A stretch of 64,000 nucleotides of DNA from Euglena gracilis (taxonomy: Eukaryota): the NCBI GenBank assembly GCA_039621445.1, contig CP154954.1:2790001-2854000 (forward strand), written 5' to 3'. The translations under genes and the position numbers were made by a program. The notes beneath the pieces were generated by a model. The model was given only the letters and a program-made list of their open reading frames with translations. It was not told the DNA's origin and did no database searches. Of this stretch, positions 842 through 54,000 are shown in pieces (within the stretch, counting starts at the first letter, position 1; every line of letters starts with the position of its first letter).

Positions 842-3800
842 CCAAACGCCATACACTTCGCCCTGGCCGAGTTGGAGGCACGCGGACGGGTCCACCACAC
901 CCAACGCTGCCCCTGGACGAACGAATCGTGGCCATCCAGTCCCACCCCCCGTCCTGTGCAATTCTCACCCCCACAAAACGATCACAGAGCCCAGAAGACA
1001 CTGTCGGCCCAACATGGCAGCTTGGCCACTTTGGAAAGCTCCACAGATTTGTCACCCGGTTTGCACTCGCTGCCTCATGGACCGGGGGGGGGGGCAGATA
1101 CGTAGGTCCTTCCCCCCGCCGCCATGGGAAGTTCCCAGTGAAGGTTTGCGCCGTGCATTTTAAGCTGGCGGTTTTTTGATTTCCCAGACCCAGAACTGCA
1201 CGTGAAATTGTTTTGGTTTTATATGGTTGTGTGCTTGCTATTTTTTTTGTGCTTATCGACGGCCATTGAAGTTGAAGCAGAAGCGAACGAACCTGTTCGG
1301 TGACCACTTCCCTGGGGGGGGGGGTGAGCAAACCATGGCTGCCAGCCCCGGAACGGACACACGGACCGGCTCACTCTCCCGCCGGCCGCCGTGGCGCGGC
1401 AGCGGTGGCGCTGTGCTCACGCAGAACGTGGACGGGCTGCACACGGCGGCGGGCAGCCGGGCCGTCACGGAGCTGCACGGCAACGCCCGCTCCGTAGTCT
1501 GCCTCCAGGTCCCTTGCCCCATCCCTCACCGCTGTGATGGGGGGCCAGGACGTCTTAGCAGGACCTTTAAGCTGTAGGAACCCATCCCCCCCGGGGGGGG
1601 GGTGGCTTTTCCAGCCAGCCCATATTTTCCAGCCTCTGAGCTGGACCCAGGGATATGAAGGCTGTCAGTATTGGGTATGGGGGGCGACCCCCCCCCCCGG
1701 GCGGGCGGTGAGGTGGGGGTGTAAGGGGTACCTGGCCATACAGCAAACTGGGCCAGAAGCGAAGTTAGCGCCGGCCATGAACAGAGACACAGCCACAGTG
1801 CAACTAGGGGGGCGGTAAGGTGATAGGGGGGATCTGGATCCCCCCCCATGTGTTGGAGGGGGATCTGGATCCGGACCCCCCCTCCTCGGCAGGTTCCAAA
1901 AAAAGCGTGAACTTTTTTCCAGTGCTGCCACCGGAAAATGAGCAAAAAAAACACGTTTTGCTTCACTTTTGAGCACATTGCCTACCTTTTGATGTTTTTG
2001 TGTTTTCCAAGTCAGAAGTGTTCAAATTTTTTTTAAAAAAACATTTCAAAGAAAAATCAGGGATGTCCAACAATTTTGGCCTTGTATCTGGCCCTTTGCC
2101 TGTCCACAAAACCAAAAAAATTCCGGACCCATATCAGTTTCGATGTGGGGGGGGCTACCCCCCCCAAGGCTTCCCACCAGGCTTTTGCTTAAGGGATTGC
2201 AGTACCCCCCGGGGGGGGGGCTGGACTGCAGCTAGTCCAAATTTGGCTAGTGGGTTTTCTAGCAGCCCCCCCCCCCCCGGGGGGGTCTGCTAGCAGGGCT
2301 AGCTAGTGGAAATTTTTTTTCCAGTGACCGGCGCGAAGCGCCGAAAATTTTTTTGGGACCCCCAAAAATGGCCAAAAATGCCCGTTTTTGGCCATTTTTG
2401 GGAATTTTTGGAACAAAATCAGCCAAAAACCTGTTAAAAACCTCATTTTTCCTCCAGCGCACAGCGCCGGAGGAAAATTTTTTTTTCCAGTCCGGGGGAC
2501 CCCCGGGGGACCCCCACCCCCCCCCCCCCCCCGGGGGGGAGGGGGGGTCTAGCTAGTCCACTTTTTCCAGTGTCCAGCCGATTGGCTAGCCAGTACCCCC
2601 CCCCCCCCCGGGGGTCCTTAAGCAAAAGCCTGCTTCCCACACATCCCCCAGAGGTACGCTTGAGCCCTGTGGGGGGCCTCTCAGATCTGGTTGGGTCGAG
2701 CAACGACATGAAACAGGGCAGTGTCCATGGGTTTGGTGGCAATTCGTGCCCCAAGGCAAATGCGACCGGATTGACACGAGAGGGCACCCCTTCAGGTCGA
2801 CCCTTCCACCACCCTTTGCACTTCACCCAACGCCAAATCCATCCACTGCGCCCTGACCGAATCGGAAGCACGCGAGCTCCGTCGGTGTCCAATTGCCCGA
2901 TGCCGCCGTCGGCAGCCACATTCCAAGTTGCTGCATCCCCTCCCTTGGCTGCACCCACTTATCGGGCCACAAATTGAAGGTCGCCGAAGGTCACAGGCCA
3001 CCCCAAAAAGTTTGATTTCCCCCCCAGTATAAAGCCTGAGGGTTTTGAAATCCTGTCCAAATTTGAAGCCGGGGGGCTTTTGTATTTGGGGGGGTATTTA
3101 GGCATGCCGCGATTTCCAGTGCGTATCTTCTTCCCACGGGGGGGGGGGAGTGACCTTTGGGTGATAAGGTGGGCATCACAGAGGAGGGGGACAACTGCCC
3201 GCCCCGAAGTGGTCCAGAGCTCCTGGGCACCCCAAGACCCTTCCCAAAGGATCAGGTTTTTTTCTTCGACGCTCCAGCCGAAGGAAGCTCAGGGTTCTGG
3301 CATATTTCTACCAAATAATCATCCGTGTTAGCTTTTTGGTCGATTTTCAAGGGTGAACAAATGCAGCAGGGAGCTCCCCTGGCAGCTGGAGGGGGGGGCA
3401 TTGGAGTGTTCCAAGGGGGGGGGGTGACAGGGCCACCCGGTACCACTTCTCGACGTTTTGGTCCGGCGGCCCGGGAAGCGCAGCCAAAGTGGACATCTTG
3501 CACTGGATTCGGGGAGGCTGTTGTCCTGTTTATAGGAATGGGATCGGGGTTGGGATCGGCGTGCCGAAATTGGTCAACTTCAGGGTCCAAGTTAGGCCGG
3601 AAGAAATGTCTACGTTCGAGAAAATTTTTGGAAATAAATTTTAGCAAAAAAAATTGTTCGAATTCTGCCTAAATTCCTGACTGCGTCCAAAATGCGGCCT
3701 CACTTTTCCCAACTTCCTAAAAATGGGAGCCTACCGGGAGTCAGGCCGGAACCCTGACCCCAACTTTGACTTTCCCTAAACGTGGAACTGGGTGGCCCCA

Positions 3801-51000: not shown

Positions 51001-54000
51001 CGACCTCCTGCCCCCTCCACTCCGTGGCGTGGACGGCGTCCAGGCCGCTTCCCGACAACAGCTTTCGAAGCCTCCCGACCCCCCCCCCCCGGTCGGCCCG
51101 GGCTGAGGTTGGAGGAGAGGTGGCACTTCCGGCAGGTGAGGACTGTCCAACTTAAGTGAGCGGGTCACCAGGCTTGTGCTTAGTCGGTTGCCTACCCCAC
51201 GGGGGGTGCTAGGGGCAGGCACCCGATCTGACCTCCCCCGGGGGGGGGTAGGGTTTTGGGGGTCCCTGCCATAGCAGGCACCCCCTCCGATCCTGGCGCC
51301 GGGGCCCGGAAAAGGCCATTTTCAATAAAAATTTTCTGGGTCCCTCTTAGTTGCACTAAGTCTTCTTGTCTGTTGTCCCCTCCGGACCCCTATCCCCCCT
51401 GGGGGTGCCTGCTAGGGCCAGGCACCCTATAGCACCCCCCCCCCCGGTCGGTAAGCACAAGCATGCGGGTCACTCCAAACCCGTTTAGCCCTCTCCAGGC
51501 TGTCAAGCCCGAGAAACGGTCTGGTCATCAGTTTTGGCCAATGTGTGAAAAGTTGTCATATAGGTGTCAATATTGATGTGGGCTTATATCTATTATATTA
51601 CATGTATTATTATCATAAAAATACATTGTCTGCTGATTTAGGTCCCCAGCATGGCCGGCCTTCAAGTCACAGTTTCTTTTGGGGGATAGGTGTTCGTTCA
51701 GATGGCCAAAACGACACCGGGGCACAGTTGCATAATGCCGCGACGCCACAGGAGAGCGGCCTGGCTTTATGGCAGGCGGCGGCCGTCAACCCCCACCCGC
51801 TGCTGCTCTGCGGTGTGCAGCGCGTGACACAGCCCGGCTCGCCGGAGCATTCCGTAGATTTATGCCAACCGACGGGGTGTCGATGTCGACGTCATTGTCA
51901 TGAACTTCCCCACCTGCCTGCCACCAACGTGCCACAACCCCCGGCCATACCAGGCGATGCCCGAGACCTGATTGTGTCTGAGAACTGGACATTGGACATT
52001 GCCTGAGACCTGACTTGGCTGGGGTCGGTTACCAAAGAGGGCAGGGGTGCCGTAACCCCCCCCCCCCCCCCCCCCCCCCCCCCCCCCGCGAATAGAAGCC
52101 CCCCTCGGTTTTCAACCAGTTTTCCGAATAGTGCCCCCCCCCCCCCGAACGGAAGCCTCTCAGTTGGGACGGCAAGGCAGGGGTTGAAGGCTGCAGCCAT
52201 TGCTGCTTTGAACCTCAACAGTCCTTTGGCATCTTCAGCCATTGGTTCAATGAGCAGTATTGTGGAAGCATCCAAATCGTCCACAAGTGTAACATTTTGC
52301 AGCAGATTTGACATGGCTGGAAAAGGACATATGGACCCCCTGGTTTCAGAATAGTGCCCCCCCCCCCCCGAAAAAAGCCCCCCCCGGGTTTTCGACCAGT
52401 TTCCCAAATAGCAGCCCCCGGGGGCTTCTATTCGGGGGGGTTATGGGGCTGCGTCTCGGCCGGGAGCTTCACTCTCGCGATGTTCATCAAGGTGGATGGG
52501 GCCCTGTTGACCGCTGCCTTGTCCGCCGCCGGCAACGTGACAGACGGCGTGATATTGGACCTACTCCGGTGTGTGGCGCACAAATAGTCACAAATTAGTC
52601 ACAAATAAAATCTTTCCCCACAACAGAAACACACACCCACACCCGTACCTGCACCCGCACTGGCCCTGGCGCGGTGTGGTACACAGCCTTCGTCGCCCGC
52701 TGGCAGTCCTACCTCCGCTCCTTGGTGGATCCATCCCTCTCGCTGGCGCCGGTCGCCTCACTGGACGCTGTGTCCGCCGCCCCCTGCCCGTCACCGCCTT
52801 CCCGAGAGAACCCGCCTCCCGCAGCCGCATCCTCCTCGCTCCCCGGGCATCCGCCAGTGCCGGCTCCGGTTCAGCAGCCCATGCCTGCCCCGGCGACCCC
52901 GCGGATCCCGCCTGCCCCCCTCCCGGGCTCATCCAGCTCCCCGACGCCAACCCCCCCGCCAGCACGGCCACGCCCCCCCCGGTCGTCCCTACACCACCCC
53001 AGCCGGGCACGGCGCCCCGCCCCTCCACCGATGGATCCCCGGCCCCTCAAACGGCAGTCCACCCTGACCGCCTGGATGCAGCCGCCCCGCGCCCGGTCGC
53101 CGCCCCACGGCTGGGCAACGGAGGGCCCTCCGACCTAGCCTCGGCGGGCGCGGGCGCGGGAATCACGGTGATGGCCATCAGCCACCGCCGTTGAGCCCAT
53201 GCAGCGCCCGGTGATGGACGACTCCATCACCAACCGAACCCCCCCCCCCCCCGTACCTGCACCCGCACCCACACCCACACCCACACGCACCAACACACAC
53301 ATGCACACACCCTGCAACTGCAAATCTCTCCACAGACAGGGAAGGTCTGTTGTTGCCATAGATTCATTTAACACTGGTGATGCCCTTCCCTGTGGAAACC
53401 TTAGGGGGGCGCTTTGAAAACAGCACATGGGTGGGTTTGGCCCAGGAAGAAGTGCCCCTTCCGTAGGGGTCACTATGCGAATCTATGGTCGTTGGGAAAT
53501 GAATATCTGCTGTGTAACAACACTCGCAGAAAAGGATTTCGCTGGATGTGAATTTGGATCACGCTGGATTCGGGTTTTTTTTGTTTGGAGAATGCTGCCG
53601 GCACTCTCCATCCCACAACCAAATCCTTTTGCGTCCCGGGAACCCTATCACCCTTCGGCCCCACCTGCTCACTCTCCACCCGCGCCCTGCGTCCAGGTTC
53701 CCCCCGGACTTCTGGAGCTGGTCCCTCCTCCATCGGCCGGCGTCGCAAATCCGGGGCAACAGCACCCCGTCCGTCGCGGTCGCCATGGTGCTCAACACGG
53801 TGAATGCTCAAACGGTGGTCAGTGCTCAAGGTGGCCCGGAAAACTCCTGCCTGTTGACTTTGAATTCTTTGCTCTCTCTTTGTTTGAGATTGGTACACAG
53901 ATCTCATTCTTGTCCGTCCCCAATTGGCTGCAGGAATTATGTCTGCGGACCAATGGTCCAATGAGCAACGGGGAAAAAGGCGGACCAAGTTCAAGGTTTT

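Follow-up and report, generated by a model that had tools for sequence, protein, structure and literature searches.

A 64-kb stretch of Euglena gracilis DNA (contig CP154954.1 of assembly GCA_039621445.1, positions 2,790,001 to 2,854,000 of the forward strand; hereafter the window) carries several families of short elements that end in CA...TG and are flanked by exact 8-bp direct repeats, and members of these families appear to interrupt a putative MAPEG-family gene, with the layout of the nonconventional introns of euglenids. We propose that the window is euglenid nuclear DNA seeded with short, non-coding derivatives of cut-and-paste transposons (MITEs, or miniature inverted-repeat transposable elements), which belong to several families, have ends of the form CAGG...CCTG and duplicate exactly 8 bp of the target upon insertion. 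The mobilising transposase would most likely be of the hAT superfamily. Copies of the same families would sit inside the MAPEG-family gene and split its coding sequence. Once transcribed, the two inverted ends would pair in the pre-mRNA, and the nonconventional machinery would cut at two points, one located 3 nt upstream of the CAG and the other 5 nt downstream of the CTG. For a target abcdefgh, such a cut would take out fgh, the element and abcde, and leave abcde|fgh, which is the uninterrupted exon. We consider this explanation as a whole to be probable, and we infer that the splicing geometry and the 8-bp duplication are causally linked. A MITE origin of the nonconventional introns has been a published hypothesis since 2014 (PMC3935182), and the explanation given here is a well-supported refinement of that known idea.

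Elements with exact 8-bp target-site duplications

To identify the elements, the window was scanned for perfect 8-bp direct repeats that abut inverted ends with at least 9 of 12 matching positions. The scan retrieved eight of the nine elements listed in the initial annotation of the window (2178-2632, 6717-7156, 8999-9431, 9977-10466, 38361-40239, 48069-48378, 51169-51465 and 61724-62959), together with the element 4404-4733 and two that had not been listed before, 32617-32912 and 40308-40876. The ninth listed element, 55156-55382 (227 bp), has the perfect 8-bp repeat ATCAGCGA (8/8) and ends of the form CAGGC...GCCTG, but inverted matches at just 5 of 12 positions. The CA...TG ends and the perfect 8-bp target-site duplication (TSD) that had been ascribed to the nine elements are hence present in all of them, while good inverted ends are present in eight and lacking in 55156-55382. 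A perfect 8-bp TSD is combined with CA...TG termini in twelve elements, ten with lengths of 227-569 bp and two longer ones of 1236 and 1879 bp. In all but one of the twelve, the inverted ends match at 9-12 of 12 positions.

The repeat length is sharply defined. With a low-complexity filter, the number of CA..TG matches per exact repeat length was 16 at 4 bp, 2 at 5 bp, 4 at 6 bp, 1 at 7 bp and 10 at 8 bp, with none at 9, 10, 11 or 12 bp. When 100 Markov-1 random windows were scanned in the same way for 8-bp repeats, there were 0.09 matches per window on average and never more than one. As a control of the register, 738 CA..TG inverted-end pairs with at least 10/12 matches were collected, among which the true register yielded seven pairs with 8/8 and three with 7/8 identical flanks, while each of eight shifted registers yielded none with 8/8 and 0-2 with 7/8. 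The sharp length of 8 and the register control together show that the elements and their exact 8-bp duplications are real, which we regard as practically certain. A relaxed scan added 31092-31382 and 49168-49599, with flanks identical at 7/8 positions each, and a duplicate intron copy at 14648-14920. Altogether, 19 distinct insertion events were counted, which correspond to 21 listed copies of which two are copies made by segmental duplication. Among the features by which MITEs are recognised, short length (under about 800 bp), inverted ends, a TSD of fixed length and related copies at unrelated sites were found in the window.

The window has a G+C content of about 52% and abundant poly-G and poly-C runs, and homopolymer runs and short repeats make up the larger part of the elements. 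Long palindromes of C-runs and G-runs, such as CCCCCCCGGGGGGG, are present in most MITE copies (at 2200-2290, 2500-2610, 9030-9100, 10090-10110 and elsewhere). They dominate naive repeat scans, and in RNA or single-stranded DNA they would fold into internal hairpins of very high stability.

Families shared between free copies and candidate introns

The initial annotation had described five intervals as in-frame exon interruptions that are members of the same families as the free elements. Their coordinates and lengths were confirmed (4401-4738, 338 nt; 17925-18205, 281 nt; 20706-20953, 248 nt; 41194-41735, 542 nt; 46957-47249, 293 nt), and so was their kinship to other elements. Their flanks are identical at 8/8, 7/8, 6/8, 6/8 and 8/8 positions, respectively, and each has a significant relative in a test in which every candidate was compared with 150 real background segments of equal length. 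The element 4404-4733 (330 bp; TSD GGGTGGGC, 8/8) is closest to 2178-2632 (z 4.8), with 1 of 150 background segments scoring as high. The element 17928-18200 is closest to 51169-51465 (z 10.3) and 31092-31382 (z 8.6), while 46960-47244 is closest to 31092-31382 (z 11.2) and 51169-51465 (z 9.5). The element 20709-20948 is closest to the left part of 6507-7204 (z 26.3) and then to 48069-48378 (z 5.6), and 41197-41730 is closest to 6717-7156 (z 6.2); in these four cases, the background scored 0/150. The family matches of the five candidates are at 60-80% identity. All matches between gene copies and free copies are in the same orientation, and no opposite-orientation copy was found inside a known gene within the window. 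The five intervals all have lengths of 2 modulo 3, by chance or possibly through the choice made in the initial annotation, so that retention would shift the frame each time.

Four families were distinguished among the copies. Family A contains 2178-2632 (455 bp; ends CAGGCTTTTGCTTAAGG, 12/12; TSD CTTCCCAC, 8/8), 8999-9431 (433 bp; TSD ATCATATC, 8/8) and the diverged copy 4404-4733. Over the whole length, the first two share 87.6% identity, yet their TSDs, CTTCCCAC and ATCATATC, are unrelated. Family B contains 17928-18200, 31092-31382 (291 bp; flanks GTTTATAT/GTTTATAC, 7/8), 51169-51465 (297 bp; ends CAGGCTTGTGCT / CATGCTTGTGCT; TSD CGGGTCAC, 8/8) and 46960-47244 (CAGGCTC.../...GTCAG; flanks ACTCTGGC, 8/8), the last of which has CAG rather than CTG as its 3' motif. 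Family C contains 20709-20948, 48069-48378 (310 bp; TSD TTCTGAAG, 8/8) and 6507-7204 (ends CAGGGTTTTTTTTTAG.../...CTTAAAAAAGCCCTG; flanks GTCCTATC/GCCCCATC, 6/8). Nested within 6507-7204 is the family D element 6717-7156 (440 bp; ends CAGGGTTCGATATAAGGAG, 19/20), which has the perfect TSD GGTGGGTG (8/8), and the other member of family D is the diverged copy 41197-41730 (CAGGGTTCGATGTAAGGAG.../...CCCTA; flanks CCGCTGTC/CCACCGTC, 6/8). From these similarities, it is very likely that the copies inside and outside the gene belong to the same families.

The 9-mer AAAATGGCC occurs 28 times in the window. Of these occurrences, 24 fall within the 19 listed elements, which together account for 14.5% of the bases. 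Twelve of the 19 contain the 9-mer, among them free MITEs, three intron elements and the 1879-bp element 38361-40239, which contains a remnant of a hAT transposase. In the latter, it is subterminal (element positions 26, 72, 82, 1822 and 1832; AAAATGGCC / GGCCATTTT sites at 38386, 38432, 38442, 40182 and 40192), while it is central in the MITEs. Its subterminal position in the element with the hAT remnant suggests that the 9-mer may be a transposase-binding repeat. Two of the four matches outside the elements, at 44122 and 59313, may mark unrecognised elements.

A search of metagenomes with the family A end, a 17-mer with two degenerate letters, matched at least 117 stretches; among the 80 loci listed, each had one match and none had both ends. 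These matches were judged to be due to chance and were not used.

Predicted excision geometry and the published splicing code

Knock-in experiments in E. gracilis by Nomura et al. (PNAS 2025; PMC12501133) established a requirement for exactly 3 nt in the 5' spacer and 5 nt in the 3' spacer, with 6 nt tolerated, summarised in a splicing code of the form 5'-N3CDG-/-CH'GN5-6|R, and demonstrated that it matters for splicing whether the downstream exon begins with a purine. The genome-wide consensus of the E. gracilis nonconventional introns given in PMC11170887 has CCAGG at positions +3..+7 and CCTG at positions -9..-6, and the MITE ends CAGG...CCTG are the same as this consensus. The initial annotation assumed one cut located 3 nt before CAG and another located 5 nt after CTG. 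This register agrees with the knock-in code as it is worded in PMC12501133, and the arithmetic by which abcdefgh-[CAG...CTG]-abcdefgh becomes abcde|fgh is correct. Because 3 and 5 add up to 8, one duplicate is removed together with the element. With an intact duplication, all nine split positions give the same mRNA, so that the DNA constrains only the sum of 8. The imperfect duplications barely discriminate between the splits; at 17925 the differing base is synonymous, and at 20706 only the 0|8 split changes a residue (Tyr to Asp).

The initial annotation further held that, in whichever orientation it inserts, every such element would be a ready-made intron. This is too strong. The published code was checked on both strands of the 14 insertion events that are not candidate introns, and nine of these agree with it in at least one orientation, six in both and five in neither, the latter having CAT or CAA ends or one mutated end. 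A purine is present at TSD position 6 in all five of the candidate introns listed earlier, as compared to 8 of the 14 free copies, which, in these small numbers, is suggestive of filtering by splicing.

The composition of the duplicated 8-mers can be compared with the published exon-intron junctions. In the part of Milanowski et al. 2016 (PMC4770533) that tabulates 55 nonconventional introns, the upstream exon ends in a pyrimidine in 49/55 and the intron does so in 49/55, the intron begins with a purine in 51/55 and the downstream exon in 55/55, and the downstream exon has A at position +2 in 43/55 and C at position +3 in 30/55. According to the model, both junctions correspond to the same dinucleotide e|f of the duplicated 8-mer, which would account for the symmetry of these rules. 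Positions +1..+3 of the exon would then correspond to target positions 6-8, and the free copies favour A at position 7 and C at position 8. Of the 19 events, 10 have T at position 2 (p=0.013) and 9 have A at position 7 (p=0.011). The 14 free copies, from which the five candidate introns are excluded, include 9 with T at position 2, 8 with A at position 7 (p=0.004), 8 with C at position 8 (p=0.017) and 13 with a pyrimidine at position 3 (p=0.002). These p-values are uncorrected and based on 14-19 sites, which lessens the weight of the target preference. The published exon-side signal may thus at least partly be a target preference. Furthermore, a newly gained gapC intron in one strain of E. agilis has eight-nucleotide direct repeats, which the account in Milanowski et al. 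2016 (PMC4770533) relates to double-strand-break repair. The 8-nt repeat in gapC is an independent datum for an 8-bp duplication.

Candidate introns in a MAPEG-like gene

The putative MAPEG-family gene is located on the forward strand. Its putative exon 1 (17867-17924, MAIVIPDEYGYVVLVIGLS), which we take to be MGST3-like, gave no Pfam match when searched as a piece of 28 amino acids. It is followed by a predicted nonconventional intron of 281 nt (17925-18205) that consists of GGT, the family B element 17928-18200 and GTCCT. The element has the ends CAGGCTTCC.../...AAGCCTG and the flanks CTCCTGGT/GTCCTGGT, which are identical at 7/8 positions. Putative exon 2 (18206-18287, WFMNLYLMTLVMNARKKYNVPYPALYA) matches positions 10-34 of the 129 positions in the Pfam MAPEG profile (E=0.074, 13.6 bits). 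Taking out 17925-18205 links ..EYGYVVLVIGLS with WFMNLYLMTLVMNARKKYNVPYPALYA and keeps the frame open, while no GT..AG pair around the interval restores the frame and every equivalent junction position is non-canonical. Each of the four checks against the published code gave agreement for this interval, and the predicted minimum-energy fold brings its ends together, with GGUCAGGCUU paired with AAGCCUGGUC.

An approximate second intron of about 581 nt (18288-18868, forward strand) starts with N3 and CAGGCTTCTCC, ends in ..CCCGTG, has flanks identical at 2/8 positions, and contains the 25th occurrence of AAAATGGCC. Putative exon 5 (20606-20705, forward strand, start approximate, ..PKLAATLGLVWVAGRFLYGAGY) matches positions 79-100 of the 129 in the MAPEG profile (E=0.0019, 18.7 bits), and this match stops at the last codon before the element at 20706. 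The exon-2 and exon-5 stretches presumably resemble MGST3. The sole match of exon 5 in a search of PDB was MGST2 (6ssr_A, residues 74-103, E=6.5), and its nearest named Atlas cluster is MAPEG, at 0.80, which serves as a lead only. A search of PDB with exon 2 gave no match. Exon 5 is followed by a predicted nonconventional intron of 248 nt (20706-20953, forward strand) that consists of GAG, the family C element 20709-20948 (ends TAGGGG.../...CCCGTG) and GATGC, with the flanks TACGCGAG/GATGCGAG identical at 6/8 positions. Taking out this interval links ..LGLVWVAGRFLYGAGY with ASGGPEGRR.. and again keeps the frame open.

A further candidate intron (21064-21618, forward strand) contains an element of 547 bp at 21067-21613 (CAGGCTTCTTTCTA/..TAACCAGAAGCCTG, 11/14) with flanks identical at 4/8 positions. 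Its excision according to the rule would assemble a stop codon, T|GA, right after ..AKLV. With a stop at this junction, the protein would have roughly the usual length of a MAPEG protein. A conventional GT-AG reading of the fourth intron in the gene was rejected, as the frame is not kept.

The gene parts are located within tandem segmental duplications, 12547-15168 / 15814-18448 (98.3% identity) and 19913-24673 / 24672-29436 (99.0% identity), both of which are young. The first holds exons 1 and 2 with their intron, and the second the last exons with theirs. An additional copy of the intron element 17928-18200 is accordingly present in the upstream tandem duplicate (14648-14920, forward strand), with the same flanks (7/8), and an identical copy of the intron 20706-20953 is present at 25474-25721. 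Since the duplications hold different parts of the MAPEG-like gene, the layout is complex and may include partial copies.

The two MAPEG-matching pieces come in the right order, with profile positions 10-34 followed by 79-100. We consider it very probable that the two copies at 17925-18205 and 20706-20953 interrupt a MAPEG-family coding sequence, and likely, if somewhat less so, that they are spliced as predicted. Several observations tell against this. Both MAPEG matches are below the Pfam cut-off (13.6 and 18.7 bits versus 23.4 bits), the PDB and Atlas leads are weak, and no homologue of the last MAPEG exon open reading frame (ORF) or the exon-2 ORF was found in the 'longer' proteins collection. 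The element 20709-20948 has TAG/GTG rather than CAG/CTG, with a T for a C in the 5' motif, and deviates from the strict published code. Its minimum-energy fold leaves the very ends unpaired, though U-G pairing is possible. Moreover, at the two further introns of the gene, which begin with CAGGCTTC, the flanks agree at just 2/8 and 4/8 positions, and no significant relative of 18288-18868 or 21067-21613 was found in the window. Such features would suit older, decayed insertions, though they are no proof.

For the other three intervals described as exon interruptions, 4401-4738, 41194-41735 and 46957-47249, no credible Pfam family was identified in ten ORFs at their flanks. The G+C-rich window contains 89 ORFs of at least 150 amino acids, and since open frames are this common, an open frame is no coding evidence for these three, which could equally be called free copies. 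Of the five proposed in-frame exon interruptions, 17925-18205 and 20706-20953 are accompanied by Pfam MAPEG matches, although below the cut-off, while coding evidence is lacking for the others.

Probable superfamily of the mobilising transposase

The element 38361-40239 (forward strand, 1879 bp; ends CAATCACC../..GGTATTTG, 9/12; TSD CCCCCAAC, 8/8) contains an ORF of 113 amino acids at 39210-39548 (forward strand, ..CSAAQAERTFSQFRHIQMDDRLNMTDE..), a putative remnant of the C-terminal dimerisation domain of a hAT transposase. Its sole Pfam match was Dimer_Tnp_hAT (E=0.044, 14 bits, cut-off 21.4 bits). A HMMER search against 1.84 billion representatives at E<=0.001 gave three matching proteins. 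One of these (P0002) is 75% identical to the ORF (E=1e-10) and scores 15.8 bits with Dimer_Tnp_hAT, and another (P0003), from the Euglena longa transcriptome in EukProt, is 62% identical (E=4.7e-6) and scores 21.9 bits, just above the cut-off. The third (P0004) is an unrelated repeat protein. The E. longa protein is found under several transcript accessions, which indicates that hAT-derived sequences are transcribed in this species; it also has a near-threshold match to a SWIM zinc finger (18.7 versus 19.6 bits). The kinship of the remnant to this protein and the fit of the intron-like elements to the nonconventional code both speak for a euglenid origin of the window. A profile of the four-member family matched weakly to PDB, with the Hermes transposase as four of the top five matches (E of about 0.2) in the C-terminal ..SSAASERTFS.. 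region, and no homologue of the ORF was found in the 'longer' proteins collection.

The ends of the elements are in line with these matches. The short inverted ends of hAT transposons begin with (C/T)A(A/G)NG, and the elements in the window mostly begin with CAGGG or CAGGC, and with CATAC or CAATC in three cases. For Hermes, the relevant part of PMC10368747 gives 8-bp duplications and a target preference of 5'-nTnnnnAn-3'. Taken together, the 8-bp TSD, the nT....A. preference, the CA(G) termini and the presence of a dimerisation-domain remnant in an element that has an 8-bp TSD and shares the 9-mer make hAT the best supported superfamily, and the assignment is likely. The similarity extends to the hAT MITEs of plants and Drosophila, with Hermes, Ac and hobo as autonomous elements, which have 8-bp TSDs, CA(G) inverted ends, the nTnnnnAn preference and subterminal repeats, and the remnant at 39210-39548 resembles the C-terminal dimerisation domain of hAT transposases. 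Unlike in those systems, there is no autonomous partner with matching ends in the window, and the protein trace is a degenerate C-terminal remnant in an element with other ends.

The initial annotation had called the elements hAT without reservation; the label stands as the best supported one, on account of the remnant, the target preference and the CAGG termini, with Merlin as a remaining rival. On the unfavourable side, the window contains no intact transposase and no catalytic domain, 27 of the longest ORFs have no Pfam match, and the element with the hAT remnant ends in CAATC while the MITEs end in CAGGC/CAGGG. The link from this element to the MITEs, via the common 9-mer AAAATGGCC, is indirect. 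In addition, PMC8101967 describes two families of Merlin transposons in E. gracilis whose TSDs measure 8 bp and whose inverted ends are near-perfect, and there the conserved ends of Merlin are said to terminate in 5'-GG-3'. That the MITEs have 8-bp duplications and serve as introns but belong to the Merlin (or P) superfamily would suit the euglenid host, the TSD length and the near-perfect inverted ends, as well as the differing ends of the element with the hAT remnant and the missing intact transposase. However, of the description of Merlin by its GG ends and TSDs of 8-9 bp, the TSD fits while the repeats in the window abut CA/TG rather than GG/CC. The nT....A. preference is a trait of hAT, as seen in Hermes, the 9-mer is common to the MITEs and the hAT-remnant element, and no remnant of a DDE_Tnp_IS1595 domain was seen in the window. 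A Merlin or P origin is on these grounds unlikely.

Alternative explanations for the introns and repeats

The 8-nt repeats could also stem from double-strand-break repair or the capture of filler DNA, with no transposase involved and with an incidental match to the 3+5 spacing. This is how the gapC intron was interpreted in the corresponding passage of Milanowski et al. 2016 (PMC4770533), and the two MAPEG-gene introns with flank identities of 2/8 and 4/8 could be accommodated. However, at least 12 elements from different families share one fixed repeat length of exactly 8, and the inverted ends, the multiple copies with differing flanks, the nested insertion, the target preference and the transposase remnant are likewise marks of transposition and not of repair, which makes break repair exceedingly improbable. 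Nearly as improbable is a reversal of the direction, in which the introns are the original mobile units that are excised as RNA circles, copied back and re-inserted, and the free MITEs are introns of unannotated transcripts or their retro-copies. Although the nonconventional introns are released as full-length circles, according to the part of the review PMC11282704 that treats them, the fixed 8-bp duplications, the hAT-like target preference and the hAT protein remnant fit DNA transposition, and the elements with CAT or CAA ends have perfect 8-bp duplications in spite of being unable to comply with the code.

A more serious doubt concerns whether the copies inside the gene function as introns at all, since they could be located in decaying pieces of a MAPEG pseudogene or be spliced at other junctions. 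The gene parts are contained in young tandem duplications (98.3% and 99%), of which the upstream duplicate has the first exons only, the element 20709-20948 deviates from the published code, and no expressed homologue was found in the protein collections searched. On the other hand, when each element is excised with 8 nt, both junctions are crossed by an open MAPEG-like frame, the Pfam match extends as far as the codon that directly precedes 20706, and the frame around 17925-18205 is restored by no GT-AG pair. We consider this alternative, under which the window itself would be uninformative on splicing, to be unlikely, and prefer the explanation that the copies are MITE insertions removed as nonconventional introns.

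Comparison with known introns and wider implications

The origin of the nonconventional introns and the reason for their asymmetric +4/-6 register are still called unclear in work from 2024 and 2025. The euglenid introns described in the literature (Tessier 1995; Milanowski 2014, 2016; Nomura et al. 2025) have CAG at +4..+6 and CTG at -8..-6, pairing ends, no GT-AG borders, spacers of 3 and 5(-6) nt, a purine downstream and frequent direct repeats, and the predicted MAPEG-gene introns fit this description. 'TSD-like' repeats at the junctions are mentioned in a passage of PMC11282704. What the window adds to this literature is a set of concrete families with copies outside genes, perfect 8-bp TSDs, a target preference and a hAT remnant, and a connection between the 3+5 geometry and the length of the duplication. 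The initial annotation noted that a transposon origin had been speculated on before, and the MITE hypothesis is indeed in print (PMC3935182). The exact rule that 3+5 equals the duplication length was not found in open-access PMC papers or bioRxiv, a search that does not extend to subscription papers and supplements. The same search gave no report of hAT elements in euglenids or of a hAT assignment of the introns, and none of free copies of the intron families.

A similar outcome is known from spliceosomal introners. In Micromonas and Aureococcus, Huff and colleagues reportedly found in 2016 that a non-autonomous DNA transposon inserted in an exon is removed together with one duplicate, so that the exon is restored. 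The introners are cut by the spliceosome at GT-AG sites that are partly supplied by the duplication. Here, in contrast, the rule would be non-spliceosomal and measured from a stem (N3/N5), with the duplication supplying length only and no splice motif. The window would thereby present a case of transposon-derived introns with a non-spliceosomal, length-matched removal.

If the link between geometry and duplication holds, it provides a concrete source of the introns, in the form of MITE families inside and outside genes, and a superfamily. It also provides a one-line reason why a 3+5 spacing makes the insertions scarless, and explains the weak junction consensus as a duplicated target preference. 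A ten-year-old hypothesis thereby becomes testable on existing genome and RNA-seq data. Euglenids would also provide a second, mechanistically different case of transposons making introns on a genome scale, after the spliceosomal introners.

A broader idea, which we put forward tentatively and hold to be somewhat less probable than its opposite, is that most nonconventional introns in euglenids (about 70% of all introns in E. agilis) are insertions of hAT-type MITEs and that transposition has left their whole junction code behind as a fossil. One 8-bp target duplication would then have the N3 and N5 spacers as its two halves, and the junction rules would be a duplicated target preference, roughly nTY..RAC. 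Taking the base of the inverted-repeat stem as its reference, the machinery would measure off 3 and 5 nt. The 3' tail would be two nt longer than the 5' tail, which is reminiscent of a staggered cut of the RNase III type, although this is speculation. The released circle would contain the element and one complete 8-mer, and be an RNA image of the excised transposon with its target. If true, insertion into an exon would be nearly harmless, explaining a runaway spread of introns.

Other elements and repeats in the window

The window contains further elements. The terminal inverted repeat (TIR) element 9977-10466 (490 bp; TSD ATTTCCAC, 8/8) has the ends CATACATCTCT, with CAT/ATG termini that are off the splicing code, and the TIR element 32617-32912 (296 bp) has the ends CATACAAT and the TSD GTCCAGTC (8/8). 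The MITE 40308-40876 (569 bp) has the ends CAGGGCAGAAC (11/12) and the TSD CCCCCAGC (8/8). A candidate element at 49168-49599 (432 bp, CAGGGCT...) has the flanks TGCCCGAG/TGCCCGGG (7/8). The element 61724-62959 (1236 bp; ends CAGGCACCTATG / CAAGCACCTATG; TSD GTCTTTAG, 8/8) carries subterminal 10-bp tandem repeats as well as AAAATGGCC/GGCCATTTT motifs.

No Rfam family was found in a scan of the window. An inverted duplication is present at 2828-2880 / 3930-3982, with arms that are 94% complementary over 53 nt and located 1049 nt apart. Weaker pairing around it reaches approximately 2726-2880 and 3930-4062, and there is no 8-bp flank repeat at its outer register. A (TATACA)n microsatellite of 490 bp and 81.7 copies (30593-31082) is located directly upstream of the MITE 31092-31382. 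An interstitial telomere-like array is present at 33118-33323, with 24.8 copies of (CCCTAA) at 97% match, and is directly followed by 14 copies of (CCAA).

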